A stretch of DNA of 32,902 nucleotides, taken from Methanomassiliicoccales archaeon (lineage in GTDB: Archaea > Thermoplasmatota > Thermoplasmata > Methanomassiliicoccales > JACIVX01). Location: NCBI GenBank assembly GCA_028682925.1, contig JAJRAG010000045.1, forward strand, positions 1 through 32,902. The letters run 5' to 3'. This document shows, in pieces, positions 31 to 32,902 of the stretch (position 1 is the first letter of the stretch; the number at the start of each line of letters is the position of its first letter). The notes under the pieces are model-generated. The model saw only the letters and a program-made list of their open reading frames with translations, was not told the origin of the DNA and did not search any database. Made by a program: the position numbers and the translations under genes.

Positions 31-1310
31 TCATATTCCGTCCTTCGAAGCGTAGTTCTTGTAGACGGCCAACCAAGAACCGAGACTTGTCGCACCCACG
101 ATGGCGAAGATCAATCCTGCGATCAGTATCCTGTTCTCCCATTCAATGGAGACGATCATCATCCCTAGTGTCCCGACGGCCATGAAGAAGAAGTTGAATA
201 TCGATGATGCCGAACCAGCATCAGTGTCCATCTGCGACATTATGATATCGAGACTCGGTGTCCGTGTGACGCTAACAGACAATGTGGCTGGTATGACCGA
301 TAGCAGGAAAGGAACGGGTCCAAGGTTACCAAACAGGATCACGAGAGCTCCACTGAGCAAGATTGTCGCTAAGCTAAAGGTGACTATCTTCAGTCTATCA
401 AAGCGCTTTGCCAGGAATAGATACAAGAACGGTCCGATCAACAAGAAAGCTGCATTGCAGGCAAAGAAAAGACTGAACTCACCTTGACTTAGACCAAAAC
501 CATCGATGAGAATGTAGCTGGAGATCCCCACCCACACGAAGATTATCATTCCGAGTGGTGACAGACTAGGCAGCAGTCTTGAGTAGCGCCGGTTCTTCAA
601 CACCACCCACAATTGACCCAGAGTTGCCAGTATCCTCCTATTCGATTTCTCTTTCAGCGACTCTTCCATGGCGAGGCAGCCAAGCAACGCGACTGCGCCG
701 AGTGCCCCTAGAATGTAGAAGATCCCCCTCCATGCCATATACTGGAGCAAAACCGCCCCGGCTATTGGCGCAAGTATTGGGCCGAATGCCATCATCATGC
801 TCACTATGGCGTAAGTCCTCTCTCTCTTTTGTGGCCTTCGTATATGTCTTTGACCATAGCGATGGATACTGCCACAGCTACCCCGCCGAATACTCCCTGA
901 AGGGCGCGGAAAGCGATGAGCTGGTAAACGTCGAAAGACAGACCACACAGGATGCTGAATATGACGAAGGCGGTCATGCCCGTCACCAAAGTCGGTCTTC
1001 GTCCGTACCTGTCGGAGAGTGGCCCCCACAGCAACAGCCCAATGGCATAGAAGAGGAAGAATAGTACCAGGTTCAGATTGAGAAGGCTTATCGGAGAATC
1101 AAACTGTGTGCTCATGCTTGGAAGGGCCGGGAGGTACATGTCGGTGGCGAGGGCAGGCAAGGCATTGAGCACGATTATTACCACCAATACGATCGGTGAC
1201 TTCTTTGGAATCATGAATCTTCTGGGCGCGGCTTCGTTGTTGACACTCCCATCCATGCTCTCCTGAAGCACAGTCTCTCCCTCCTTCTCCACTCGTCCTG
1301 GTATCTTCAA
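31..1310 (-). pseudogene. MFS transporter (Bcr/CflA-like drug:H+ antiporter type), interrupted by a frameshift
   Basis: Minus-strand ORFs 804..1310 and 31..1029 form the N- and C-terminal parts of one multi-helix MFS protein. The N part has LPALPSM and GPLSDRYGRRP motifs. The C part continues with AFGPILAPIAGAVLL and further hydrophobic helices. The frames switch inside an (AG)5 run. Frame A reads HKRERGLTP-stop and frame B reads PQKRERTYAIVSMMM. Deleting one AG unit gives a continuous HKRERTYAIVS. Confidence 0.7.
818..827. repeat. (CT)5 dinucleotide run, (AG)5 on the coding strand, at the MFS frameshift point
   Basis: Read directly from the sequence: ctctctctct at 818..827. Confidence 0.9.
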
Positions 1311-3575: not shown

Positions 3576-4159
3576 AAACAAAGCATCGGACAAGAAAGCG
3601 ATCTAATGTCTTCCGAGAAAGAAGCATCGTGAGAGCTCGAGGGCATTTGTTAGAGACTGCTAATGATAGGAGTTCACCCCTCCGGCCACCCTGAACAAAT
3701 TCCATGATAGCGTTCTGAAAAATCCTTGAACGGCCTGACACAATCTCAATGACCGACCGGAGGCTTTCTTCGCCCGTTCGGTCAGGAGAAGGCGGACAAG
3801 CTTGAAATACGTGGTCTTTCGTGCGACTCAACAATAGTTAATAAATGAGAGGTGATCAACCTGCCAACACATCAGGGCAACAGAAACGACCGATATCTGA
3901 TGATCGAACTATCCTGTGCAGAAAGGAAATGCATTCCATGCACGTACCCCTACTGTCAGCGCTACGTCAGGGAGAACGGGAAGGAAAAGAGGGTCTCAAG
4001 CCGCATTTTCGAAACCGGCAACACAGTGTAGTCCAATAACGAGATTCTTGTTTCCATTCACTGCACCAGGATCGATTGCCGAGAAATGGAAGCCTCGTCT
4101 CCCTTGGGATATTCTGTCTCTTGCCTATTGAGATTCGACTATTCTCTCAGAAATATCGG

Positions 4160-5107
4160 TCAATACTCATTTTTGAAATCGAATTTGAAGATGTCCCGCC
4201 TTGAATAATGTCCGAGTGCGTCAAAATACGCCTTCGTGTGTCTCCTGTCATCAGAGTCCAGCGATGCATAGATTATGGCTTCCTTATCGAAAACAGGTCC
4301 TGCAAGAATCACTCCGGCGGGGTTGACAATGAAGCTCCCGCCCGCAGCCGTGTTGAAGTCCGCGCATTCCTTCGGAAGATCCTTGTCCGGGACGTACTGG
4401 CTGACGCTTATCACGAACGCCTGATTCTCGAACGCGTATTCTCGTACGGCGTGCTCAATGTCGCAGAAGTGAGACGAATCCTTGCCCTCCTCGTACCGTT
4501 TCTTATCTCCTGGATGACGATTCATTACCCACCATCCAGGCCATACGGCGCAATGTATCTCCTCGCCCAGGCTTCCCATCGCCGCCTTCAGAAGCGTCAT
4601 ATGATGCTCATAGCATACAAGTCCTCCGATCGTCCCAATGTCAGTGTCGAACACTCTTACGTCGCTGGCGTCACCCATTCCCCAGACCATTCTCTCGCCA
4701 TGGGTCGGCATCAATTTCCTATGGCGTCCCAGGACCTTTCCATTGTTACCTATGAAAAGGATAGTGTTGTAGAGTGTCTCGCTTCCCTTCCGGTCGCTAA
4801 GCTCTGTGCATCCAATAACTGAGATCATGTCCGCGTTCTTGGAAGCGTCGCATAGGACATCAGTGTCCGAGCTTGGAATCCTGACCGAGTTCTTCTGATA
4901 CTGGACCATGAAATCGGACCATCTTGATATAGGCTGCAATCCCCTCCAATATGGATATCCAGGGATGAATGTCTCGGAGAAAACGGTCAACTTCGCTCCC
5001 GCGCGACCAGCTTCTTCAATCGTCCTACATGCCTTATCGATCGTCGCCTCCTTGTTCATGAAGATAGGAGAGACCTGGGCCGCTGCAACCTTGACCTTGT
5101 CCATCAT
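4160..5107 (-). CDS. Nitrilase / carbon-nitrogen hydrolase family protein
   Basis: The Glu-Lys-Cys triad contexts are VFSETFIPGYP, HRKLMPT and GGLVCYEHHM. The N-terminus VKVAAAQVSP is typical of CN hydrolases. GGTG lies 9 nt upstream of the ATG. Confidence 0.85.
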   Translation of the reverse strand: MMDKVKVAAAQVSPIFMNKEATIDKACRTIEEAGRAGAKLTVFSETFIPGYPYWRGLQPISRWSDFMVQYQKNSVRIPSSDTDVLCDASKNADMISVIGCTELSDRKGSETLYNTILFIGNNGKVLGRHRKLMPTHGERMVWGMGDASDVRVFDTDIGTIGGLVCYEHHMTLLKAAMGSLGEEIHCAVWPGWWVMNRHPGDKKRYEEGKDSSHFCDIEHAVREYAFENQAFVISVSQYVPDKDLPKECADFNTAAGGSFIVNPAGVILAGPVFDKEAIIYASLDSDDRRHTKAYFDALGHYSRRDIFKFDFKNEY

Positions 5108-20395: not shown

Positions 20396-21454
20396 TCAGT
20401 CTATGTCCATTGGGACCTTCTTGATGCTTTTCAGCATATCTCCATCCCAGACGTATCTGAGCCTCTTGCGGTTCTTCCACACTCCCTTCTGCAGGATGTA
20501 ACCGACCATTAGGCTAAGTCCGATCGACGCCTCGACGTACACGACGGCCTTCGTCGCGTTCCTGTTGATCTTGCCCCAAGACTGTGCCTCCTCAAAAGTG
20601 CAGCCGGAGAGGCCGCCCCAATAGGGAACATCGGTAGTGATCTGTATGGCGTAGTGGTGGCCGCCTTTGTCGTGGCCCAGAGTCTCGGCGATCACCTCGG
20701 TCTGCTGTATGTAGTTCTTCGGGACGCCGCCTCCGATGTATATGACACCGGTCTTGTCCGACTTAATCTTTATCTGGGCTATCTCCCAATTGTCCCGTAT
20801 CGGATCGATGCTCATGAATGGCTTGTTTGCCTTGCGCATCCTTACGTACATTCCCGTCAGCCCGATGCCGATGGATGAGTCGTTAAGAGCGGGGACGAAG
20901 ACCGGGACTCCGTACCTCCTTGCATTGTAAAGGATAGAGTCTTTGCCAGACTGTTGGCCCAGTATCTCCATGAACTCTCGACTCGAGTAGCCGCGTGGCT
21001 CGAGCCCTCCCGCAATGTCGCCGATGAAAGCGTCAGTCTCTCTGAATTTCTCCTCATCGACCAGCGTATCGTATATTCTGTCAAGGAAGAACTCCCTCAA
21101 CTTCAGATCGTCGATATTGGGGGAGCACTTGTAGTGACTGTACCCCCTCGACTGGTAGAAGTCCTGATATGGGATCGCACCGATCGACACGATTCCGTCG
21201 ACAATGCCATACCTTATCATGTCGACTATGATCTTCCTAAGCCCTGCAGCGACCAAAGGACCGGCAAGACCCAAAAGGATCGTCGGTCGGCTCGGGTCCT
21301 TCAGGGCGTTCTCGTACGCCATGGCACATGTGGCCAAGGCTCGACTCTGCACAGAGCTATCCTTATATGCTTCGACCAGATCCTCAACCGTCGAGATTCT
21401 GTCGAAGTCGATGTGCTTCACTTTCTCTTTCAACAAATCCTTTCTGCTGACCAT
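20396..21454 (-). CDS. dys: Deoxyhypusine synthase
   Basis: There is full-length resemblance to DHS, including LAGPLVAAGLR, IPALNDSSIG-type PALNDSSIGIGL and IYIGGGVPKNYIQQ. ATG 21454 (MVSRK) has GAGGGA 8 nt upstream. The track uses TTG 21472. Confidence 0.9.
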   Translation of the reverse strand: MVSRKDLLKEKVKHIDFDRISTVEDLVEAYKDSSVQSRALATCAMAYENALKDPSRPTILLGLAGPLVAAGLRKIIVDMIRYGIVDGIVSIGAIPYQDFYQSRGYSHYKCSPNIDDLKLREFFLDRIYDTLVDEEKFRETDAFIGDIAGGLEPRGYSSREFMEILGQQSGKDSILYNARRYGVPVFVPALNDSSIGIGLTGMYVRMRKANKPFMSIDPIRDNWEIAQIKIKSDKTGVIYIGGGVPKNYIQQTEVIAETLGHDKGGHHYAIQITTDVPYWGGLSGCTFEEAQSWGKINRNATKAVVYVEASIGLSLMVGYILQKGVWKNRKRLRYVWDGDMLKSIKKVPMDID

Positions 21455-21508
21455 TGAGAATCCCTCAGACAATTCGAATTCAGATGCCTCCGGTCCCCTC
21501 GAGATTCA

Positions 21509-22051: not shown

Positions 22052-24004
22052 GTGCAGAAGAAATCGGAGGGAGACAACCTGGACTACCAGGGAACACTAG
22101 ATGGTTCCAAGGCATCTTCTGAAGAGACTGGTCCGATTGAAACGGACGATGTATCGCCAGAGAAGACGGACGAACTCAAGAGATGGTTGAGCGGAGAGGA
22201 TACCCTTCTTTCTTGGCTTAATGAAGGTCCGGAATCGGGACTGCTCGTCAATTCTGACCTCGAAATCGGAGGAAGTATAGAACCTTCGGAAGATCAGCTG
22301 GCTTTGAAAGAGAAGGTTGCAGACTATGAGGACGAGCTCACGCGATTGAGGAAAGAAATCAATGAGATGAGGGCAAAGGACGATATTGTCGGACCCGATG
22401 AATCGGTGACCGCGAGGAAGCTGCGAGAGCTGTCGAATGAGAATACAAAGCTACTGAAGGAGTTGGAGAGCGCACGGGAATTGAGGGAAGCGCTCAAGAA
22501 TCAGTTCGAGATCTCGATGAAGGACCTTCCCGGAGATAGGGTGTCAATCATTCAGAAGGAATTGGAGCTCAAGGAACTCGAGAAAGAGCTGACCTCCAGA
22601 GAAGCCATCGTGGCAGAAAAGGAATCGATGTTGAGGGACAAACCGATATCCACCGAAGACGGAATTGACCTCGAGGAGAGATTCCACGCTGAGCTCAGAG
22701 AAAAAGATCTAGAGTTCCAGCGCAGGGAGCAGGAGCTCTTGACGAAGATCGAGGGGCTTGAGCAAAACCTCAAACAGAAAGTGATGGATGACGAGCTTCT
22801 TGAGAACGAACTGAGAATCGCGCGGATGACTGGCCCCGACGCGCAGAAGGAGATACTGGAGAGAACAAAGAGTCTCGCGCTCAAGGAGAAGTCCATAATG
22901 CTGAAGGACGCGGAAATCGAGAAACTCAGGATAGAGAATCGGGAGAAGGATGATGAGCTTTCGAAGATCAAATCCGTCGTCTCATATAAAGAAGAAGAGA
23001 TCCTTCGAAGAGACGAGGATTTGTTCTACAGAGAGAAGGTACTGTCAGAGGAACGACGCAGATACGATGAGATGAAGAAGCAGCTCTCAGGCCTCGACGA
23101 GGTGGAACTCAAGAAGCGCCTCGAGGATCTGAAGATGGAAGTCCAAAGGAAGGAGGAGGAAATCCGAGCAAAGGAGAAGTACCTCAATTCGAAAATGGAA
23201 GAGCTGCGCCGGAGAGAACAAGGCATCATCGAGGACGAGATATCGGCGAGAGAACAAGACAGAGCACTTGAGGTGCAGCAGGCTAAGGTGAAGACCGGAA
23301 ACGACCGTTTGGACGACCTTCTGCTTGGAGGTATCCCGTTCGGATCGAACATTCTGGTTCATGGTCCGCCCTTCGTAGGAAAAGAAGTGATGATGAACCA
23401 GTTCATGGCAGAGGGCCTCAAGAAGGGGCTACCAGTATTGTGGGTCCTCACAGACAAGACTCCTCACGACATCCGAGAAGAAATGAACTATGTCCTGTCC
23501 GGATACGAAGAATATGAGAAGTTGGGTCTGGTGAAGTACATCGACTCATATTCCAGGAGCATGGGGGAGACCACTGACGATCCTTTTACCACCTACATCG
23601 ACGAACCGACCGACCATGACTCGATTATGGAAAACGTCGAGAAAATTGTAAAGCAATACAAAGAGAAGCACGAGCTCTACCGCCTCGCATTCCGATCCAT
23701 CTCGACCCTGATAGCCTACTCAGATCCAAACACGGCGTTCAGATTCTTGAGCCCATTCTGCGGCAGGAGGAAGAGGGACAAGGCAGTCGCACTCTTCACC
23801 GTGGAGAAGGGCGTGCATGGTGAGCAGGAAATCCAAATGCTTGGATCGATCATGGATGGAATGATCGATTTCAAGGTTGACCAGTTGAGAACGTTCTTCG
23901 CGGTCAGTGGCATCTCTGACGTGCAATCAAGAGCGTACATAAGGTACACTTCGAGCAAGCATGGCCTGACAATAGGCTCATTCGCCCTTGAGCACATTCG
24001 TTGA
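22052..24004 (+). CDS. Coiled-coil protein with a C-terminal KaiC/ArlH(FlaH)-like RecA-superfamily domain and degenerate Walker motifs
   Basis: The GTG start has AGGTGA 8 nt upstream. Residues about 85-415 are E/K/L/R-rich with heptad-like periodicity (LKELESARELREALKNQFE, KELELKELEKELTSREA and similar). The C-terminal 230 aa reads LDDLLLGGIPFGSNILVHGPPFVGKE...LWVLTD...YRLAFRSISTLI, which is the KaiC/RAD55/GvpD-family layout. No TM helix is present. Confidence 0.75.
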   Translation: MQKKSEGDNLDYQGTLDGSKASSEETGPIETDDVSPEKTDELKRWLSGEDTLLSWLNEGPESGLLVNSDLEIGGSIEPSEDQLALKEKVADYEDELTRLRKEINEMRAKDDIVGPDESVTARKLRELSNENTKLLKELESARELREALKNQFEISMKDLPGDRVSIIQKELELKELEKELTSREAIVAEKESMLRDKPISTEDGIDLEERFHAELREKDLEFQRREQELLTKIEGLEQNLKQKVMDDELLENELRIARMTGPDAQKEILERTKSLALKEKSIMLKDAEIEKLRIENREKDDELSKIKSVVSYKEEEILRRDEDLFYREKVLSEERRRYDEMKKQLSGLDEVELKKRLEDLKMEVQRKEEEIRAKEKYLNSKMEELRRREQGIIEDEISAREQDRALEVQQAKVKTGNDRLDDLLLGGIPFGSNILVHGPPFVGKEVMMNQFMAEGLKKGLPVLWVLTDKTPHDIREEMNYVLSGYEEYEKLGLVKYIDSYSRSMGETTDDPFTTYIDEPTDHDSIMENVEKIVKQYKEKHELYRLAFRSISTLIAYSDPNTAFRFLSPFCGRRKRDKAVALFTVEKGVHGEQEIQMLGSIMDGMIDFKVDQLRTFFAVSGISDVQSRAYIRYTSSKHGLTIGSFALEHIR

Positions 24005-24028: not shown

Positions 24029-24454
24029 TCAAGCAACTTCAACGCTTTCTCCAGGCCCTCTTACGTTCTTCTTTTGAATATTCACCCTTGGTAGCGGAAA
24101 GGGTGGAGGCAGCCTAATATCCCGAGAGACGAGCAAAGCTGTTGGGATACAGTTCGAGACAATCGAGTTGTGGACAAGGTTCGCTGCCTCATCGGGCATG
24201 GAGTTCTTCTTCGACCATTCGTCCACGAGAATCGAGACCTCGCCGCATAGCGTTATTTGGCCTTCAATCTTTATGTATCCCATTCCGACATAGTTAGCGG
24301 TGAACCTGAACTCGACCGAAGCGGTATCCTCCCCAACCTTCGAGATCTGGGTCACTGTACTGTTCTGATCGATTCTGACATTGGAGATCCGTTCACCAGA
24401 TTTTGAGAATCTCTTTGCCTCGATCGTGTGCGTCTCAAATCCCTTGACCTGCAT
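24029..24454 (-). CDS. Hypothetical protein (141 aa) with a SecB-like fold pattern
   Basis: ATG 24454 starts MQVKGFE, and an upstream TTG at 24466 is also possible. Four predicted beta strands are followed by a long helix and a C-terminal IPTALLVSRDIRLPPPFPLPRVNI. That tail parallels the SecB segment LFPYARE...RGxFPxLxLAPVNF. The resemblance was judged by eye only. Confidence 0.5.
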   Translation of the reverse strand: MQVKGFETHTIEAKRFSKSGERISNVRIDQNSTVTQISKVGEDTASVEFRFTANYVGMGYIKIEGQITLCGEVSILVDEWSKKNSMPDEAANLVHNSIVSNCIPTALLVSRDIRLPPPFPLPRVNIQKKNVRGPGESVEVA

Positions 24455-24545
24455 CCTCACGCCCAATGGGCCAATCGCTCATTTAGATAATAGACATTTC
24501 GACAGCGACTGAAGCATGAAAGGTTGATTTCATTGAACGTCGAGA

Positions 24546-24638
24546 TGCCGCGGGCCGGACTTGAACCAGCGACTTCAAGATATCCGCTCCCGTGCAGGGA
24601 ACTTCAGTCTTGCACTCTCCCAACTGAGTTACCGCGGC
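24546..24638 (-). tRNA. tRNA-Phe (anticodon GAA) with a 20-nt intron at the canonical 37/38 position and no encoded CCA
   Basis: The reverse complement reads GCCGCGG TA ACTC AGTTGGGA GAGT G CAAGA CTGAAG [TTCCCTGCACGGGAGCGGAT] A TCTTG AAGTC GCTGG TTCAAGT CCGGC CCGCGGC A. All four stems pair, with one G-U in the T stem. The discriminator is A. Confidence 0.85.
24582..24601 (-). other. tRNA intron (20 nt) with a relaxed bulge-helix-bulge
   Basis: The proposed fold has a central helix CTGA/GCGG with 3 of 4 pairs, flanked by the 3-nt bulges AG|T and AT|A. The inner helix is TCCC/GGGA with loop TGCAC. The splice sites fall symmetrically in the bulges. Confidence 0.6.
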
Positions 24639-24857: not shown

Positions 24858-24865
24858 TTTAAATA
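24858..24865 (+). promoter_or_regulatory. TATA box (TTTAAATA) upstream of the type IV filament operon
   Basis: It matches the archaeal TATA consensus TTTAWATA. It lies 52 nt upstream of ATG 24917 and 79 nt upstream of ATG 24944. Confidence 0.4.
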
Positions 24866-24943
24866 GTTATATGTTGCTCATTTTCACCCGAAGGAACTGG
24901 GTCACTGGTGTAGCGTATGTTCGGTTCCCGTGAGGGACTACGG

Positions 24944-25852
24944 ATGAATAGATTGAGCAAGCGTCACTTTCTGAAGCGTGATAGGGAAGGAGTCGCTTCG
25001 ACAGTGGGCACGATAATGGCCTTGCTAGTATTCATGACATTTCTCTCGATGTTCACGAACTCGTACATTCCAGTATGGATGCAGGACAACGAAAGGGCAC
25101 ATATGAACCAGGCTATCAACCAGTTTGCAGACCTCAAGGGAAAGATAGACAGCCTTATTGTCACTGCCCAAGTGACTGGATCCAGCACGATTCACATGTA
25201 TTCACCGATAACGCTCGGTGCCCAAGGGATACCTGTCTTTGCCTCCCCGACGGCCGGGTTGTTGACCTACTCTCCTCAGGGAACGGGTGACTCAGGCATC
25301 TACGTTAAGTTCAACTACTCACTTGATGGGGTGAAGACCAGAGTGTCGGAATCGGGTGGCGGTATGGTGGAGCTGTATGCGCCGAATAGGTATTACGTCC
25401 AGCAGTGGGTCGGATATGAGAACGGCGCGATGATCGTAAAACAGCAAGACGGTCAAATCCTAAGGGCATGGCCGAGCATCCAGGTCGAGAAAATTGGGTC
25501 CTCGATAAATATCAGGTTCACTCAAATCGACTTTATTGGGACTAATGCTAGCGTTGGCGGTACCGGCACGGTCGGCCTGAATCTGAACCTGGTCTACATC
25601 GACTCCCAGACATATTCATTTGACAGCACTAGTGGAATGGATGTGAACATAACGTTCAGAACGAGATACTGGGACGCATGGCAGCAGTTCCTCGATGACA
25701 CGTGCTTGAAGGCCGGACTGACTTCTCCCACGAACTACGGAATAAAAATCCAGCAAGTGAATGACAATGTCGAGACCGTCACGCTTTGGATAAAGAATTC
25801 AGGAACGATGATCTACAATAGAGCGTTCATGGACGTATCGGTGCAGATCTGA
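24944..25852 (+). CDS. Class III (type IV prepilin-like) signal peptide protein of about 300 aa; putative pilin-like or filament-associated subunit
   Basis: The N-terminus MNRLSKRHFLKRDREG/VASTVGTIMALLVFMTFLSMF has a charged leader, a Gly at the likely cleavage site and a hydrophobic helix of about 20 aa. The rest is rich in beta strands and in S/T/G/N. ATG 24944 has GAGGGA upstream, and 24917 is an alternative start. Confidence 0.65.
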   Translation: MNRLSKRHFLKRDREGVASTVGTIMALLVFMTFLSMFTNSYIPVWMQDNERAHMNQAINQFADLKGKIDSLIVTAQVTGSSTIHMYSPITLGAQGIPVFASPTAGLLTYSPQGTGDSGIYVKFNYSLDGVKTRVSESGGGMVELYAPNRYYVQQWVGYENGAMIVKQQDGQILRAWPSIQVEKIGSSINIRFTQIDFIGTNASVGGTGTVGLNLNLVYIDSQTYSFDSTSGMDVNITFRTRYWDAWQQFLDDTCLKAGLTSPTNYGIKIQQVNDNVETVTLWIKNSGTMIYNRAFMDVSVQI

Positions 25853-25867
25853 TGATGAAGCGGTGTA

Positions 25868-27649
25868 ATGATGCAGGAAGCTGAAGCAGGGAAGATGACT
25901 GAAGGGGACCAGTCTAACGATGCAGATGAAGTCTCATCGAAAGCATTGGTCGATGATTTCCAGAGCGAATCCAAGGCCACCAACAGGCTTAGAGACTCCT
26001 ACTTGAAATTCCTTCGAAGGGTCGCGCCGAACAGGGCGTCCAGAGTCAGACTTCCTGTGGGGGAGATAGCTCAGAGAGTCGAGTGGTCAAAAGGGAGAGG
26101 TTCTCTCATCACTGAGATCCCGAAGATCGAGAATCCTTCCATCGAGGTCGCTGATATCTATCCCGTTGTGGAGCCTTACAGTTTTGTCCGCGTGACTTTC
26201 AACAAAGAAACGAGCGAATACATTCTCGAGATGATAGAGCCGGCGCTGACTGAGAAGGAGGAGAAGCTACTCAACCTGATAAAGGACACCATGAAGAGAA
26301 CACTTGGATATGAATGGGACAAACTCACACAGCTCGACAAGGGAGAGTATCTCACGGAGAGCGTCGAGAGCTATATCAAGAGCCGAGGGGTCAGGATTGA
26401 TCCTCTAGTACGGAAGAAGATAGGGTACTATATAGCCAGGGACTTTGTCGGATACGGTAAAGTCGACGCCCTCATAAGGGACGAGAACGTCGAGGACATC
26501 TCGTGCGATGGCGTCGGCATTCCTTTGTTCGTCTTCCACAGGAAGTATGAGAGCATCAAAACCAGTCTATCATTCAATGATGAAGATGCGCTCAACTCCT
26601 ACGTGGTTTCTCTTGGACAGAGATGCGGCAAGCAAATATCCGTGTCGAACCCGATCCTGGATGGTACCACTCCCGAAGGTCACCGTGTCCAAGCGACGTA
26701 TTCGAGGGAAGTGACGACCAGAGGATCGACATTCACCATAAGAAGGTTCAAGGAGAAGCCCTTCACTCCAGTGGAACTAGTCAAGTATGGCACCGCAAGC
26801 CCGGAGATGATCGCGTACTTCTGGCTTGGCGTCGAGAACGGGGAGTCCGCAATCATTGCTGGTGGGACCGCCAGCGGCAAGACGGCCACGCTGAACTCGA
26901 TCGCGTTGTTCATACCTCCGGGGGCGAAAATCGTCACTATGGAAGACACGAGAGAGATCAACCTTCCGCACGATAACTGGATACCAGGAGCGACAAGGAC
27001 CGGGGTCGGGGAGCGTGACGCGAGCGGTAGAATGGCTGGGGAAATCGATATGTACGATCTTGTCAGGGCCTCTCTAAGACAGCGTCCCAACTACATCATC
27101 GTCGGCGAGGTCAGAGGCAAAGAGACATACATCATGTTCCAGGCGATGGCCACCGGTCACACGACATACTCCACAATGCACGCAGACTCAGTGAAGTCGA
27201 TGGTCAACAGGCTCGAGAACCCTCCGATCAACTGCCCACGGATCCTGCTCACGGCGTTGAGAAACGTTATCATCCAGACGCACGCGAGAGTCGGGACCGA
27301 TCTTGTGAGGAGAATCAAGCAGGTAATCGAGATTGTCGGTTTCGAACCTGAGACCAACGAGCTGATCACTAACACCGTCTACGATTGGGACCAGGCCACT
27401 GACAGGTTCATCTACAAAGGTCACAGCTTCCTATTTGACAAGATTATGGAGATGAAAAGCCTCACGCACGATGAAATGATGGAGGAGTTCAACCGACGGA
27501 CGGACATTATCAAGTACATGGTACAGAAGGACATCACCGATCACAGGAAGATATGGGGCCTCATTAACAGCTATTATAAGGATCAGGAGAAAACGATAAA
27601 GAGGATACGTAGGGAGATGGAGGAGGGGGTGACACAAGTTGGCGCCTGA
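25868..27649 (+). CDS. FlaI/PilB-type secretion ATPase (GspE/VirB11 superfamily), paralog 1
   Basis: Walker A is GGTASGKTATLNS. The Asp/Walker B region is IVTMEDTREINLPHDNWI. GEVRGKE is present, and the His box is AMATGHTTYSTMHA. The N-terminal domain YPVVEPYSFVRVTFNKETSEYILEMIEPALTEKEEKLL is typical of archaeal FlaI-like ATPases. Confidence 0.9.
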   Translation: MMQEAEAGKMTEGDQSNDADEVSSKALVDDFQSESKATNRLRDSYLKFLRRVAPNRASRVRLPVGEIAQRVEWSKGRGSLITEIPKIENPSIEVADIYPVVEPYSFVRVTFNKETSEYILEMIEPALTEKEEKLLNLIKDTMKRTLGYEWDKLTQLDKGEYLTESVESYIKSRGVRIDPLVRKKIGYYIARDFVGYGKVDALIRDENVEDISCDGVGIPLFVFHRKYESIKTSLSFNDEDALNSYVVSLGQRCGKQISVSNPILDGTTPEGHRVQATYSREVTTRGSTFTIRRFKEKPFTPVELVKYGTASPEMIAYFWLGVENGESAIIAGGTASGKTATLNSIALFIPPGAKIVTMEDTREINLPHDNWIPGATRTGVGERDASGRMAGEIDMYDLVRASLRQRPNYIIVGEVRGKETYIMFQAMATGHTTYSTMHADSVKSMVNRLENPPINCPRILLTALRNVIIQTHARVGTDLVRRIKQVIEIVGFEPETNELITNTVYDWDQATDRFIYKGHSFLFDKIMEMKSLTHDEMMEEFNRRTDIIKYMVQKDITDHRKIWGLINSYYKDQEKTIKRIRREMEEGVTQVGA

Positions 27650-28679
27650 AGTCTCTGACATATTTGCGAGATTGGAGGCCTCGAAGAAATCGTATACGAA
27701 GACCAAGGGAGCGGAGGAGAGGCCCGATGTTGTAGGTCCTCATGTCGTGAAGCTTCCTCAGGGTGCAGTTCCAGATTACATCAAGCTGACGAAGTATCAG
27801 GAGTTCTGTTGGAGGACCCTCGAGTCGTTCGTGAAACTGAAGGCCAAACCTAACCCCAAACTCGAACAGAACCTCCTCCAGGCCCACATGAAGATGCGCA
27901 CCGAGGAGTATGTGTCTTATGTCTGGATGACGACCATACTGGCTGGTGCCATTGCGGCGGTCCTTGCCGTCCTCTTGGGCGGCATAATCCTGAGCTTCCT
28001 GCAAGTCGACGCCGCACTCGTCTTGGTAGGACTCGTGCTGATGGTGATCATACCCCCTGTGCTAGCCTACATGGTCCTTGTTTCCCGACCTGCTTCGGTG
28101 GCGAAGCGCAGAGGAAGAGACATTGACAAGAGAATCGGGGCCGCAATGAGCTTCATTTCTGCCATGGCTTCCGCGGATGTCAACGTCGATGTCATATTCA
28201 AAGAACTTTCAAGACAGAAGATATATGGTGAAATCAGAGACGAGGCAGAGTGGATCACGAGGGACACGGAGCTTCTCGGCATCGACATATTGACGGCCAT
28301 TAACAATGCGGCTCAGAGGACGCCATCCACTAGGTTCCAGGAATTCTTGCAGGGTGTGGTCACGACCTCCACTTCTGGCGGTCAGCTCAAGCCCTATTTC
28401 CTGCAGAAAGCGGAGCAGTTCGAAAAGGAGGGGAAGCTCGAGATGCGTTCTCAGCTCGAGACACTTGGCCTGATGGCCGAGTCTTTCGTCACGGTCGTCG
28501 TCGCATTCCCTCTGTTCCTTGTCGTGATCATGGCGATAATGGCAATCGTCCCAGGTGGAGGGGGATCATCAGACATGACCATTATCCTACTCTATGCTGT
28601 GGTCGGACTTATGATTCCAATCTCCCAGTTCGGATTCATCTTCTTCATCTGGAACATTACTAAGGAGGCCAGCCTATGA
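27639..28679 (+). CDS. FlaJ/TadC-like platform membrane protein with a single T2SSF-like domain, half 1
   Basis: The TTG start has GGAGGGGGTGA 6 nt upstream and overlaps the ATPase-1 stop by 11 nt. The cytoplasmic domain reads MSFISAMASADVNVDVIFKELSRQKIYGEIRDEAEWITRDTELLGIDILTAINNAAQRTPS...GGQLKPYF and is flanked by TM helices. The exact start is uncertain. Confidence 0.8.
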   Translation: MAPEVSDIFARLEASKKSYTKTKGAEERPDVVGPHVVKLPQGAVPDYIKLTKYQEFCWRTLESFVKLKAKPNPKLEQNLLQAHMKMRTEEYVSYVWMTTILAGAIAAVLAVLLGGIILSFLQVDAALVLVGLVLMVIIPPVLAYMVLVSRPASVAKRRGRDIDKRIGAAMSFISAMASADVNVDVIFKELSRQKIYGEIRDEAEWITRDTELLGIDILTAINNAAQRTPSTRFQEFLQGVVTTSTSGGQLKPYFLQKAEQFEKEGKLEMRSQLETLGLMAESFVTVVVAFPLFLVVIMAIMAIVPGGGGSSDMTIILLYAVVGLMIPISQFGFIFFIWNITKEASL

Positions 28680-28691
28680 GGGGTGATTTGG

Positions 28692-29636
28692 ATGGCTAGA
28701 AAGGGGAAAGGGAAGAAGAAGAAAGAAGACAAGAAGGGGCGAATCCTAGACATAAGCCAGATCAGGACTAGAAAGAGCGACTACGGCAGGACCATCCTTT
28801 TGGTGGGCTTGGTCATCGCGATTATATTGTTCTTCATGGGATTCCTGGAAGCCATTGGCGGACTGAAGACTGGTCTCAAATGGATAGACTTCGTAGCCTT
28901 CGGCCTGATGGCAATCAGTGGACCATACGGCTTCTACATGTCCTATCGTCACAAGAAGATAAAGGAGATAGAGTCTAGACTGCCGGACTTCCTCAGAGAT
29001 GTGGCGGAGGCTGGACGATTCGGAATGACATTGGCCGAAGCGGTCAAAGTCTCATCCAGAGGCAGATATGGCAAGCTGACGCCTGAGATAAAGAGGATGG
29101 CTGCTCAGATTGACTGGGGGGTGCCAGCAGCCGACGCGATGCGTCTGTTTACCGAAAGAGTGAACACTCCCCTTGTGAACAGAATGATGTCGATCATCAT
29201 CAAAGCGAACGACGCCGGCGGAAGCGTAGCAGATGTCCTTACAATGGTCGCCCACGACGCAAGGGAGGCGATGCTCAACGAGAACGACAGGAAGATCTCG
29301 ATGTCGACCTACATGGTGGTCACCTACATCGCGTTCATGGTGTTCATCGCGACGATATTCATCCTGAACTCGACTTTCCTGCCCAAGATGGCGGAAGCAG
29401 GCCAACAAGTCGCAAAGGGCGCCGAAGCGGCTGGAATAACGAACATGCCAGCGACGATACAGACCGAAATCATTCCTCAGGTGCAATTGATATTCATTAT
29501 CGCGGTGGTTATACACGCTTTCGGCGATGGCATCCTTGCTGGTGTACTTCAGGACGGTAGAATCACGAACGGACTACGGCACAGCTTCATCATGTTGGTG
29601 ATCGGCTTCATCGGAACAAGAGTAATAGGAGGATGA
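28692..29636 (+). CDS. FlaJ/TadB-like platform membrane protein with a single T2SSF-like domain, half 2
   Basis: The ATG has GAGGGGTGAT 5 nt upstream. The domain reads LPDFLRDVAEAGRFGMTLAEAVK...EIKRMAAQIDWGVPAADAMRLFTERVNTPLVNRMMSIIIKANDAGGSVADVL and is flanked by TM helices. Confidence 0.8.
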   Translation: MARKGKGKKKKEDKKGRILDISQIRTRKSDYGRTILLVGLVIAIILFFMGFLEAIGGLKTGLKWIDFVAFGLMAISGPYGFYMSYRHKKIKEIESRLPDFLRDVAEAGRFGMTLAEAVKVSSRGRYGKLTPEIKRMAAQIDWGVPAADAMRLFTERVNTPLVNRMMSIIIKANDAGGSVADVLTMVAHDAREAMLNENDRKISMSTYMVVTYIAFMVFIATIFILNSTFLPKMAEAGQQVAKGAEAAGITNMPATIQTEIIPQVQLIFIIAVVIHAFGDGILAGVLQDGRITNGLRHSFIMLVIGFIGTRVIGG

Positions 29637-29642
29637 TAGAGA

Positions 29643-31334
29643 ATGACAGACGCCGAGAGAATGGAAGAACCTCTTCCTGAGGAGAGAGTTGAGAAAGACA
29701 TCAAGGAGAAGAGGTCAGGCGGCGGATTGTCAAATAGATACCTTTCATTCCTGCTCAAATTGAAGAGCAAGCCGATGAAGATCATGATCCCAACAGAGGT
29801 CAGCAAAGGACCGCTTGACGTCATAACAGAGATTCCCAAGATCTCGGACGCCGGAGTCGATGAGGTAGAGATCTCGAGAATCACTGACCCTTACTCATTC
29901 GTAAGAATAAAGTACGACAATGTCGGGGGAGAGTACCTCTATGAAGTCATCGAGCCGAACCTGTCCGGTGACGAGCGCAACCTTCTAGAGCTGCTGAAAG
30001 ACGCCCTCATTATGACATTGAACCTGGCAGAGATCGAGTCCAAAGCGCAGAAGGAGGAGATCCTGAACAAGGCAACGGACGCGCTCATGAAGACGTTCGG
30101 TGTGACGCTCCACCCGATCTCAAAGGACAGGATCATGTACTTCATTCGGAGAGACTTCATTGGATATGGGGCAATCGATGTCATGATGAACGACCCGAAC
30201 GTTGAGGACTGCTCTTGCGATGGGGTCGATATTCCACTCTACATATACCATAGGAAATACGGATCGATCAGGTCAAACATCAGATTCGTAAAGGAGGTCG
30301 AGCTTGATGCGTTCGTCGTCTGGCTAGCACAGAAGTGCGGAAAGCACATATCGGTCGCTGACCCGCTGCTTGACGCTACCATACCAGACGGATCGAGGCT
30401 CAATGCGACCCTTGGTAAGTACGTCACCAAGAGGGGGTCGTCCTTCACGATAAGACGCTTCAAGGAGAACCCGTTCACTCCTATCGATCTATTGAAGTTC
30501 AGAACGATGAGCACTGACATGATGGCCTACCTTTGGATCGCCACTGAGTACGGAAGCTCGATGCTCGTCTGCGGAGGTACGGCAAGCGGCAAGACGACGA
30601 CCCTGAACGCTGTCCTCCTTTTCATACCACCACAAATGAAGATAGTCAGCATTGAGGACACCAGGGAGCTCAACCTACCCCACGAGAACTGGATCCCCTC
30701 GCTCACAAGGGAGGGTTTCGGAGGGAGGGGGAGCAACAAGACCGGGACCATAGACATGTTCGAGTTGCTGACGACCGCTCTGAGACAGAGACCACAATAC
30801 CTGATGGTCGGAGAGGTCAGAGGCAAGGAGGCATATGTCGTCTTCCAGGCGATGGCGACCGGCAAGACCGCCTATTCGACCTTCCATGCAGAGGACGTTC
30901 AAGCGATGGTGCATAGGATGGAGAACGACCCGATCAATCTTCCCAGAGCACTGATGACAGCGTTGGACATCGTGCTTCTACAAGCGCAGGTGAAGGTCGG
31001 CACCAAAATGACAAGGAGGGTCAAGTCCCTCACAGAGATCGTCGGAATGGATCCGGAGACGGGGGAGCTTATCACGAATGCGGTTCACACTTGGAACCCC
31101 GCAGACGACACTTTCAACTTCAGCGGGCATTCGTATGTGTTCGAGAAGGTTAGAACGATAAGGAACTGGTCACCCAGGGAGATGGAACGCGAGGTCAAGC
31201 GGAGGGTCGACATCCTAGATTACATGAAGAAGATTGGTGTCGACAACTACAAACAGGTCGCGAGCATAATCTCAGCCTACTACAAGGACCCTGAGAAGGT
31301 CATCAAAGAGATCAGGGAGAAATTGACTGAGTAG
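29643..31334 (+). CDS. FlaI/PilB-type secretion ATPase, paralog 2 (His-box variant)
   Basis: GGAGGATGA lies upstream of the start. Walker A is GGTASGKTTTLNA, followed by IVSIEDTRELNLPHENWI and GEVRGKE. The His box reads AMATGKTAYSTFHA, with Lys where paralog 1 has His. The protein is collinear with paralog 1 over its full length, and identity by eye is roughly 50-60% in the C-terminal domain. Confidence 0.9.
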   Translation: MTDAERMEEPLPEERVEKDIKEKRSGGGLSNRYLSFLLKLKSKPMKIMIPTEVSKGPLDVITEIPKISDAGVDEVEISRITDPYSFVRIKYDNVGGEYLYEVIEPNLSGDERNLLELLKDALIMTLNLAEIESKAQKEEILNKATDALMKTFGVTLHPISKDRIMYFIRRDFIGYGAIDVMMNDPNVEDCSCDGVDIPLYIYHRKYGSIRSNIRFVKEVELDAFVVWLAQKCGKHISVADPLLDATIPDGSRLNATLGKYVTKRGSSFTIRRFKENPFTPIDLLKFRTMSTDMMAYLWIATEYGSSMLVCGGTASGKTTTLNAVLLFIPPQMKIVSIEDTRELNLPHENWIPSLTREGFGGRGSNKTGTIDMFELLTTALRQRPQYLMVGEVRGKEAYVVFQAMATGKTAYSTFHAEDVQAMVHRMENDPINLPRALMTALDIVLLQAQVKVGTKMTRRVKSLTEIVGMDPETGELITNAVHTWNPADDTFNFSGHSYVFEKVRTIRNWSPREMEREVKRRVDILDYMKKIGVDNYKQVASIISAYYKDPEKVIKEIREKLTE

Positions 31335-31547: not shown

Positions 31548-32902
31548 CTAGGGTGTTTCCTCACCCTCATTCGATCCTGCTTCCGGAGGTTCTGTTTGCT
31601 CGGGAGGTTTCTCTTCCGCAGCTGTCTCCTCAGGTTTCTTCAAAACCTTCTTCTCGACCGGTCTCTTTACGATCCTCCTCAGCCGTGGCTTGCCCTCCTC
31701 TGCGGCCTCTTCCTTCAGGGTCTCCTGCATCGTCTCGAAGACGGTACCGCACTTGTGGCAGACCTTTGAGCCTCTGGGGTTGAGCGTACCGCAGACAGGA
31801 CAAGCGAAAGCGCCGAGCTTCCGGCGTTCCTCCTCTTGGGAAAGCCACTTCTCGAAGGTGATGTAGCTGGGCTGCTTCTTCCACCAGTCTGAGAACTTCG
31901 CCTCGGAGAACTTCTTCCCGAGGACTTCCTTGGCCTGCTCCCTGTATCCGTCCAAGAACTGCTGGTACTGCTCCCTCATCTTCTTCATGTACTCGTCCTC
32001 TTCTTCCGGAATCGGCCCAGTTACGAATTTCGCACCGCACTCCGGACACTCAGTTGAGTTCGCAGGTATCCAAGCCGCGCATTCGCTGCACTTCGCAGTG
32101 CCCGTCTCGAACTGCACGCCGCACTTCGGGCAGCGCTTCGAGGCCTCGGGTATGAGGGAACCGCACTCGCCGCACTCAACCATCTTCCCAAGTCCGTACT
32201 TGTACAAGTATAGCGAGAAGAATATGATGATCGCGGCGACTATGGCGATAATGATCGCATAGATCCACCAATCGGTCGGAGTCTCCACAAATCCTCTGCT
32301 CACGGTTATGTCCTGGGTGTGGCTGAACGTCTGATCCCCAATCTGGACTGTGACTCGAATCTTGTAGTCTCCTTCCTCTCCCAGAGGGATGTACTTGGAG
32401 GACTGGAAACTACCAGATGCTGTGGTCAGCGCAGTCGAGTTGGCACCGATTACACTACCGGACGCGCTCACGAGACTGATCCACGCAGATCTGCCTATGA
32501 GTGGGTCGCCACTAATCTCATTCGTCACAGTGCCACCAACCACGATGTCTGTGCCGGCCTTGTAGTCGAACACACCGCCCAGATCGATGACGATGAGGGG
32601 GTTTGGCACGTTGACACGGAACTGCATTGTAATCTCATTGTTGGAGTAGTTTCCTTCTCCTGCCCCAATATCTCCGAGCAGACTCGCTCTCATCGTCAGG
32701 TTGAACCATCCGAAGCTTGTGGTATTGACCACCCAGGTCAGGTTCGCAGTCACCGTAGCATTGGCGGCAATGTCGGTCGTGACCGTTCCAATGTTCCTGA
32801 TCATGCCTTCGGAGTTCGTGATGTCAAAAGCCACAACGACATCCATCGCGGACGTGTACCCATCGTTCTTGACCTGAGCTCCTATGACAATGGATTCACC
32901 GA
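31548..32902 (-). CDS. Surface protein (partial, with its 5' end beyond the window): Ig/CARDB-like ectodomains, one TM helix and a cytoplasmic tail with three zinc ribbons
   Basis: The reading frame stays open from 32846 to the window edge (GESIVIGAQVKNDGYTSAMDVVVAFDITN...). The N-terminal part is beta-rich with N-x-S/T sequons. The TM helix is WWIYAIIIAIVAAIIIFFSLYLY. It is followed by CGEC..CPKC, CSEC..CPEC and CPVC..CHKC ribbons and a K/E-rich tail. Confidence 0.7.
   Translation of the reverse strand, partial: GESIVIGAQVKNDGYTSAMDVVVAFDITNSEGMIRNIGTVTTDIAANATVTANLTWVVNTTSFGWFNLTMRASLLGDIGAGEGNYSNNEITMQFRVNVPNPLIVIDLGGVFDYKAGTDIVVGGTVTNEISGDPLIGRSAWISLVSASGSVIGANSTALTTASGSFQSSKYIPLGEEGDYKIRVTVQIGDQTFSHTQDITVSRGFVETPTDWWIYAIIIAIVAAIIIFFSLYLYKYGLGKMVECGECGSLIPEASKRCPKCGVQFETGTAKCSECAAWIPANSTECPECGAKFVTGPIPEEEDEYMKKMREQYQQFLDGYREQAKEVLGKKFSEAKFSDWWKKQPSYITFEKWLSQEEERRKLGAFACPVCGTLNPRGSKVCHKCGTVFETMQETLKEEAAEEGKPRLRRIVKRPVEKKVLKKPEETAAEEKPPEQTEPPEAGSNEGEETP

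Follow-up and report, generated by a model that had tools for sequence, protein, structure and literature searches.

The stretch of DNA analysed here, 32.9 kb from a Methanomassiliicoccales archaeon (the window), carries a compact set of five genes for a type IV filament machinery, with all five open reading frames (ORFs) on the plus strand. The genes encode a pilin-like protein (PIL), a first secretion ATPase (A1), two small membrane proteins that correspond to the N-terminal and C-terminal halves of a platform protein (Cn and Cc), and a second secretion ATPase (A2). A preliminary description of the window had proposed this layout as a candidate for an undescribed variant of the archaeal filament or secretion machinery. 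We confirmed the genes and their arrangement, and found that the window operon is a Methanomassiliicoccales member of a two-motor machinery already catalogued in Thermoplasmatota. The promoter and genes of the operon are as follows.

24858..24865, plus strand: putative operon promoter, archaeal TATA box TTTAAATA, the sole TTTAWATA match in the window
24944..25852, plus strand: PIL, pilin-like protein with a class III signal peptide, DUF7289 family; 302 aa from ATG 24944 (longest ORF from 24917, 311 aa)
25868..27649, plus strand: A1, first FlaI/afGspE-like secretion ATPase, 593 aa; T2SSE and PilB3_C domains
27639..28679, plus strand: Cn, platform N-half, 346 aa, TTG start; one T2SSF domain and alignments to the N-half of platform models
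28692..29636, plus strand: Cc, platform C-half, 314 aa from ATG 28692 (GTG 28683 possible, 317 aa); one T2SSF domain and alignments to the C-half of platform models
29643..31334, plus strand: A2, second FlaI/afGspE-like secretion ATPase, 563 aa; T2SSE and PilB3_C domains

The operon and its conservation

The ORF calls agreed with the five co-oriented, packed genes of the preliminary description and, using its start codons, with its intergenic gaps of 15, -11, 12 and 6 nt. The ribosome-binding sites and the consensus TATA box claimed there were also recovered: a Shine–Dalgarno-like GGTG/GGAGG motif lies ahead of all five starts, and TTTAAATA is the single TTTAWATA match across the window, for a chance expectation of 0.44 per window. 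A scan for bacterial sigma-70 promoters and intrinsic terminators was uninformative, as its models are bacterial and the host is archaeal.

The neighborhood of the operon was surveyed by scanning a single genome for each GTDB species. Over 575 candidate stretches were obtained, and the best 80 were kept, all of them from Thermoplasmata/Methanomassiliicoccales metagenome-assembled genomes (MAGs). Sixty of these 80 loci were intact, with all four core genes (A1, Cn, Cc and A2) present as complete single ORFs; the others were cut by contig ends or frameshifted. Four loci with fragmented ORFs come from MFD-named MAG assemblies, and we suspect that indel errors lie behind the fragmentation. The gene order A1-Cn-Cc-A2 and its strand were the same in 60/60 intact loci. 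The spacing of the genes was also conserved, with an overlap of A1 and Cn in 53/60 (median -11 nt) and median gaps of 11 nt between PIL and A1, 0 nt between Cn and Cc, and 5 nt between Cc and A2. In 38 of 50 loci, the orthologous gene is preceded by a comparable TATA box at a distance of 25–85 nt (mostly 47–85 nt). These results confirmed that the five packed genes form a real and well-conserved operon. Because the spacing is tight and a single conserved TATA box lies upstream, we argue that the genes constitute one transcription and translation unit, and we infer from its sequence and position that TTTAAATA has promoter activity.

Among the relatives, A1 was 61–87% identical to the window protein, and A2 was 62–90% identical when called ORFs were compared and 62–98% identical across the 80 species loci. 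The named homologs belong to Methanomassiliicoccales MAGs, and wetland and soil metagenomes contain near-identical contigs with the same genes. The ATPase-platform-platform-ATPase order is also kept in three loci of more distant Thermoplasmatota (L085, L087 and L088). In L087, the first ATPase is nearer to A1 (494 versus 450 bits) and the second nearer to A2 (489 versus 452 bits); judged by such scores, the positional orthology of A1 and A2 holds in these more distant loci. Since order, packing and catalytic residues are conserved, A2 is part of the same unit as the other genes, and neither ATPase is decaying in the relatives.

The ATPases, the platform and the pilin-like protein

The assignment of the products made earlier, namely a class III signal peptide protein, two FlaI-like ATPases and two T2SSF proteins, agreed with the Pfam matches and with the conserved N-terminus of PIL. 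Both ATPases contain a T2SSE domain (E 2.6e-32 and 5.5e-32) and PilB3_C, and they are 47% identical to each other over 553 residues, with Walker A, Asp box, Walker B and His box in both. Among PDB entries, A1 best matched afGspE (2OAP, 416 bits), with FlaI at 274 and CpaF at 139 bits, and A2 likewise best matched afGspE (2OAP, 443 bits), with FlaI at 294 and CpaF at ~138 bits. The catalytic residues that were checked (Gly/Lys/Thr of Walker A, EDTRE of the Asp box, GEVRG of Walker B and the His of the His box) were invariant in 63 A1 and 69 A2 sequences. By sequence, both ATPases are catalytically intact, afGspE/FlaI-like paralogs. A1 evolves somewhat faster and is less afGspE- or FlaI-like, and A2 is the more conserved paralog. 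We identified 24 positions that are conserved within each paralog and different between A1 and A2, eight of which cluster at residues 266–284 of A1 and 245–263 of A2, just before the FTIRRFKE motif.

All specific NCBIfam models scored under their cut-offs for the operon ATPases. The FlaI equivalog model gave 409 bits for A1 and 435 bits for A2 (cut-off 550), TadA (TIGR03819) 138 and 143 bits (cut-off 373), PilB ~50 bits for both (cut-off 676), and PilT/PilU (TIGR01420) 45.5 and 44.7 bits (cut-off 319). Of the bindosome models, BasE reached 200 bits against a cut-off of 1000, and BasF, a platform model, 43 against 1300. An AIRNLIRE-like motif was absent from both A1 and A2. The earlier hint of an antagonistic, PilT-type retraction motor found no support: the ATPases are afGspE/FlaI-like paralogs, full-length and without AIRNLIRE, and they score ~45 bits with the PilT model, far under its cut-off of 319. 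An archaellum was rejected on the sub-cut-off FlaI score, ArlJ models at or below 76 bits against cut-offs of 400–570, and the lack of an archaellin gene in the window. An Epd/Tad-type system would agree with the two single-domain platform genes, but the TadA model is sub-cut-off and CpaF scores well below afGspE and FlaI. Membership in the bindosome was rejected because the BasE and BasF scores are far under the cut-offs.

Two further observations were made on the ATPase and platform sequences. A '+x[VI]x[VILM]P(xG)' element precedes the first transmembrane (TM) helix of Cn (window 27639–27800) in 42 of 67 orthologs, where 1.4 are expected, and occurs in the A1 N-termini (window 25868–26150) in 15 of 61 orthologs, where 2.5 are expected. 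It was rejected as a motif common to A1, A2 and Cn, as only 2 of 69 A2 sequences have it (2.5 expected); the element may be a docking peptide. Ten homologous ATPases (P0295, P0301, P0326, P0330, P0338, P0355, P0358, P0359, P0373 and P0384) have insertions of ~450–500 aa in the conserved core; inteins within archaeal pilus ATPases are the probable explanation.

Each of the two membrane proteins contains a single T2SSF domain (E 2e-12 and 4e-19). Cn aligned to residues 5–243 of 555 in ArlJ, 29–243 of 484 in UpsF and 156–337 of 656 in BasF, and Cc to residues 271–542 of ArlJ, 284–437 of UpsF and 379–617 of BasF. Five full-length platform models (three ArlJ, UpsF and BasF) thus agree on the two halves, which shows that the operon encodes one FlaJ/TadC-type platform in two genes. 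The Cn homologs were mostly ~346 aa long (303–358 aa) and never full-length, and BLASTP detected no similarity between Cn and Cc. The module had been called 'symmetric', with two half-size platforms. The two single-T2SSF genes are indeed there; they do not encode equivalent platforms, since Cn is the N-half and Cc the C-half of a single FlaJ-type protein.

The start of PIL was placed at ATG 24944, with which the starts of the orthologs in L004 and L005 align. The N-terminus consists of a basic region followed by the class III-type sequence 'REG/VASTVGTIMALLVFMTFLSMF', also written 'EG/VASTVGTIMALLVF...', and is nearly invariant in ~50 orthologs. DUF7289 matched 36 of 51 PIL orthologs (best E 6.4e-9); for the window PIL it was the only family match, at 25 bits, below the cut-off of 27. 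An AlphaFold2 model, built with orthologs taken from the protein-search matches (pLDDT 87.9), showed a helix at residues 6–78 and then an all-beta head. A Foldseek search of this model against the PDB gave nothing significant (best E 4e-3, TM ~0.1), so the pilin call rests on the N-terminus and the overall architecture. Compared with the traits of arCOG02911 (250–550 aa, class III signal peptide, all-beta body), PIL agrees in size, N-terminus, predicted fold and position at the head of the operon, and its DUF7289 match is sub-cut-off; PIL is probably an arCOG02911-type 'minor pilin'.

The PIL gene lies 5′ of A1 in 49/60 intact loci and was undetected in a few. In L085 (8586–9428) and L087 (11989–12837), a pilin-like gene ('EEGVASAVGAILAIL...') was observed 3′ of A2 and not 5′ of A1, a placement also found in L088; in this lineage of more distant Thermoplasmatota, the operon comes after a family B DNA polymerase gene.

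As the preliminary description had noted, no archaellin, small pilin or prepilin peptidase is encoded nearby: within the 32.9-kb window, we found no prepilin peptidase, no archaellin and no class III signal-peptide protein besides PIL. The remaining genes of the window are housekeeping genes.

Published counterparts of the arrangement

The layout was said to be atypical for characterized archaeal pili, which we judge to be correct. The same arrangement is nevertheless on record. For Aciduliprofundum boonei T469 and Aciduliprofundum sp. MAR08-339, Table S4 of Makarova 2016 (PMC4858521) lists an arCOG02911 pilin of ~300 aa, then an arCOG01817 ATPase of 545 aa, an arCOG01808 TadC of 332 aa, a TadC of 290 aa and a second arCOG01817 ATPase of 550 aa; a convergent arCOG01917 Zn-ribbon protein closes the locus, which is classified as Clade 2, and the main text remarks on 'two distinct ATPases' within one locus. 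As read from the published table, this locus resembles the window in gene order, orientation, protein sizes and the convergent Zn-ribbon neighbor. It differs in lineage (DHVE2) and in its upstream genes, which are aIF5A and agmatinase there, whereas a KaiC-like gene, a 145-aa ORF and a tRNA gene are found here. The tables of the same study also contain pairs of Thermoplasma ATPases whose GI numbers are three apart, which suggests that two genes lie between the paired ATPases in Thermoplasma too. According to Makarova 2016, KaiC-family ATPases are also found in association with Clade 2 loci, and major pilin genes in this clade normally lie elsewhere. Methanomassiliicoccus is stated there to lack secretion ATPases, although in Table S3 two other Methanomassiliicoccales genomes have one Clade 4 ATPase.

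A second counterpart is the CdiP machinery of Cuniculiplasma divulgatum (PMC12448462; ISME J 2025), for which a long helical pilus has been solved (PDB 8REY). Its machinery operon contains genes for a pair of ATPases, CdiPE1 and CdiPE2, and for a platform divided between CdiPFa (N-half) and CdiPFb (C-half), and the pilin genes lie ~500 kb from this operon. The organism adhered to a surface and no twitching was seen; the authors, who treat C. divulgatum as an outlier, write that why a second ATPase is needed 'remains enigmatic'. We rebuilt the CdiPFa and CdiPFb sequences from the machine-read text of the supplementary alignment of that paper. CdiPFa was 32% identical to Cn and CdiPFb 29% identical to Cc (E 2e-36 each), in the same N-to-C order. 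CdiP and the window have in common two FlaI/AapE-like ATPases, N-half and C-half platform genes and the same phylum; a major pilin gene far from the machinery is also part of the explanation that we favor here. CdiP comes from a different order, Thermoplasmatales, and its sequences are very divergent; its authors liken it to Aap, whereas the window proteins are nearest to afGspE and the PilB3 type.

Other systems have some of these features. PilB3-PilC3 of Haloferax volcanii and afGspE of Archaeoglobus fulgidus belong to the same ATPase subfamily as the window proteins, have pilins in trans and are marked by arCOG02911-type proteins; they differ in having one ATPase and one full-length platform of ~650–750 aa, according to the literature. 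In Methanococcus Epd pili and bacterial Tad pili, the platform also consists of two single-T2SSF genes (EpdJ/K and TadB/C), a gene pair derived from a two-domain ancestor by fission (Denise 2019). These systems differ in having a single motor (TadA/CpaF or EpdL, Makarova Clade 1), and their second 'ATPase' is of the FleN or FlaH type and not a motor paralog. Bacterial type IVa pili, with PilB and PilT, likewise use two hexameric ATPases of the secretion superfamily per filament machine, but PilT forms a family of its own with shorter proteins, and its gene usually lies away from pilB, whereas the window pair are full-length paralogs.

The window contains two features of Clade 2, an afGspE/PilB3-subtype ATPase and an adjacent TadC/FlaJ-type platform, and two of the two-ATPase, split-platform design, namely paralogous motor genes in one operon and the N-half and then the C-half between them. 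We concluded that the window operon is a Methanomassiliicoccales member of the catalogued Thermoplasmatota two-motor machinery, of euryarchaeal Clade 2 and CdiP-like design. Novelty had been made to depend in advance on the arrangement being absent from catalogued clades; because the layout is already catalogued in Aciduliprofundum, and two ATPases with a split platform are described for CdiP, the claim of an undescribed variant fails. What is new is that environmental Methanomassiliicoccales have this design and that it is conserved across lineages of Thermoplasmatota. The machinery is among the few archaeal type IV systems that do not follow the one-ATPase, one-platform rule.

As judged from gene order and sequence, the comparison shows that the two-motor design is ancient and strictly maintained across Thermoplasmatota. 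This upkeep, together with the intact catalytic sites, argues that the second motor is a conserved functional requirement and not an oddity of one species. Its role, which the 2025 paper left open, is a question worth pursuing, and many natural A1/A2 sequence pairs are now on hand for co-evolution and structure-prediction work on platform sharing.

Origin and function of the second motor

Two relatives with a single ATPase (L089 and L091) carry an N-half gene of 289–293 aa and a longer gene that matches Cc over its C-terminal 300 residues. As these single-ATPase relatives already have a split platform, platform fission was not tied to duplication of the motor. The ATPase of L089 lies equally far from A1 and A2 (51–52% identity) and is nearer to them than they are to each other (47%), which fits a duplication from a single-motor ancestor; the L091 ATPase leans to A2 (483 versus 411 bits). 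From these comparisons, the A1/A2 pair looks like the product of a duplication of one ancestral motor followed by divergence. KaiC-like genes with Roadblock/LC7, small GTPase or response regulators were also observed in L089 and L091.

A neighbor-joining tree of 154 ATPase cores (100 bootstraps) recovered the A1 and the A2 ortholog groups at 100% each. An exclusive A1+A2 clade appeared in 24% of the replicates, A1 with the first ATPase of L087 in 52%, and A2 with the second ATPase of L085 in 17%. At the deeper branches, the bootstraps do not separate a Thermoplasmatota-specific duplication from an older one, and the tree was not relied on. Neither was the FastTree of Makarova 2016, in which the two Aciduliprofundum paralogs pair with different Archaeoglobi paralogs at modest support.

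A natural tandem fusion of two complete FlaI-like ATPase modules was observed in another lineage, in L084 (264–3728; P0262, 1154 aa). Its halves are 54% identical to each other and 33–35% identical to A1 and A2, with a Walker A and a Walker B in each, and the gene is overlapped by 8 nt by that of a 388-aa single-T2SSF protein (3721–4887). P0386 (851 aa) looks similar to this fusion. The fusion shows that two paralogous modules can share one polypeptide, although an assembly artefact is possible on a single metagenomic contig.

Taking these results together, we consider it likely that the operon assembles a type IV pilus from pilins encoded elsewhere and that both motors act on one split platform. 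Cn and Cc would associate in the membrane and rebuild a two-domain, FlaJ-like platform, on whose cytoplasmic face hexameric ATPase rings would dock. ATP hydrolysis would then lift peptidase-processed pilins from the membrane into the base of a filament, which would be adhesive. The PilA/CdiPB-type major pilin and the prepilin peptidase would be encoded elsewhere in the genome, and PIL would be a minor or priming subunit. A1 and A2 would serve the same platform, either joined in a mixed ring or occupying it in turn, having arisen through duplication and subfunctionalization of a single-motor ancestor; they would be neither a PilB/PilT-type pair nor the drivers of two independent systems. A single platform for both ATPases is favored because the genes are strictly co-inherited, the four core genes are translationally coupled, and one motor evidently uses both halves in the single-ATPase relatives, which carry both. 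The P0262 fusion, encoded beside a half-platform gene, also points to a shared platform.

Several points weigh against this proposal. From the window, no filament, pilin or prepilin peptidase is tied to the operon. The match to CdiPFa and CdiPFb (29–32%) is no closer than the match to the single-ATPase relatives, and the tree of Makarova 2016 places the short, fast-evolving Thermoplasma ATPases in Clade 4 and not in Clade 2. Contact of A1 and A2 with each other, or with one platform, is a prediction from gene arrangement and comparison. The 24 paralog-specific sites fit distinct partners or roles equally well, and the P0262 fusion is an independent duplication on a single metagenomic contig.

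A bolder claim is that A1 and A2 are specialized motors of one machine, working as an obligate mixed hexamer on a Cn/Cc hetero-platform or as an independently evolved extension/retraction pair; we regard it as rather unlikely. The second of these forms, in which one motor polymerizes the pilus and the other depolymerizes it in an independently evolved analogue of PilB/PilT, is by itself improbable. It would make use of two intact, co-inherited motors in one operon, of the paralog-specific positions clustered just before FTIRRFKE and of the faster evolution of A1, the less afGspE- or FlaI-like of the two, and archaeal retraction does exist, in the Aap pilus of S. acidocaldarius (PMC11178785). 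However, neither ATPase is PilT-like, as both keep the full N-terminal domain and PilB3_C and lack AIRNLIRE. C. divulgatum, which has the same design, adhered without twitching, and in this branch of the superfamily a single ATPase (CpaF, AapE) does both jobs, according to published work. If it were true, an extension/retraction pair would mark the first time that a dedicated second motor, perhaps one for retraction, is seen in a type IV pilus of archaea, and the pair would be widespread in Thermoplasmatota, not confined to one species.

We also considered whether the operon encodes two half-machines, in which A1 would work with a homo-oligomer of Cn and A2 with a homo-oligomer of Cc, for different pilin sets or for a pilus plus secretion. 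The order A1-Cn/Cc-A2 is mirror-symmetric, with A1 translationally coupled to Cn and Cc abutting A2. Precedents can be cited for such a division: Makarova 2016 makes the case that different pilin sets can be served by ATPase/TadC modules, Denise 2019 reports a single platform gene at work in some actinobacterial Tad systems, and RNA-seq of C. divulgatum gave a CdiPFa:CdiPFb ratio of ~2:1 (PMC12448462). Yet Cn and Cc are consistently the N- and C-half of one FlaJ-type protein and are adjacent, with a median gap of 0 nt; the single-ATPase relatives carry both halves, and 0/60 intact loci have lost one 'half-machine'. This division of the operon is therefore very improbable.

A non-pilus machine, either a bindosome-like or secretion filament that places surface proteins such as the giant CARDB protein described below or a short pseudopilus, would suit the lack of a major pilin gene in the window, the conserved convergent position of the giant protein from Aciduliprofundum to Methanomassiliicoccales and the presence of BasE and BasF among the NCBIfam matches, but it is hardly credible, as both Bas scores (200 and 43 bits) are far under their cut-offs (1000 and 1300), Clade 2 systems normally have their major pilin genes at a distance (Makarova 2016), the only studied organism with this design has a long helical pilus (C. 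divulgatum; PMC12448462), and the window holds only the C-terminal part of the CARDB protein, whose N-terminus would carry any class III signal peptide.

Neighboring genes and a pilin lead

Four further features flank the operon.

22052..24004, plus strand: coiled-coil protein with a C-terminal KaiC/FlaH-like domain, 650 aa; KaiC (E 1.4e-20), DUF7504 and DUF7090
24029..24466, minus strand: 145-aa conserved protein between the KaiC-like gene and the operon, with no Pfam or NCBIfam match
24546..24638, minus strand: tRNA gene of 93 nt between the 145-aa ORF and the operon promoter; Rfam 56 bits, no anticodon named by ARAGORN
31548..32902, minus strand: giant surface protein, C-terminal part, with CARDB repeats, a TM helix and cytoplasmic Zn-ribbon domains; the gene continues past the end of the window

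A giant protein of 1000–2500 aa is convergent to the operon in most loci, from Aciduliprofundum (arCOG01917) to Methanomassiliicoccales. Full-length orthologs in L004 (11867–16603), L019 (11815–16629) and L052 (11704–17217) are 1578–1837 aa long and contain 2–6 CARDB repeats. Judged by synteny, the giant CARDB protein may have a link to the pilus system, as a surface component or adhesin.

The upstream KaiC-like gene is syntenic in the Methanomassiliicoccales-type loci. Its product has an atypical Walker A ('GPPFVGKE') and scored 28 bits with the ArlH model (cut-off 215), the FlaH model also being far under its cut-off; a role as a regulator is possible. The 145-aa protein is syntenic in ~27 loci, with 38–88% identity, and the tRNA gene probably contains an intron. 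A few kb upstream, a deoxyhypusine synthase gene (20396–21472, minus strand) was observed, and the Aciduliprofundum locus is directly preceded by aIF5A and agmatinase. These hypusine- and polyamine-related neighborhoods may be what is left of an ancestral synteny, or they may be alike by coincidence.

In one Thermoplasmata MAG (L079), a small PilA/CdiPB-like pilin gene (346–936, minus strand) adjoins the operon in divergent orientation. Its N-terminus, '...EEAVSPVIATILLVAITLVL', is almost equal to that of C. divulgatum CdiPB, and this putative pilin provides a lead to the type of major pilin used by the operon machinery.

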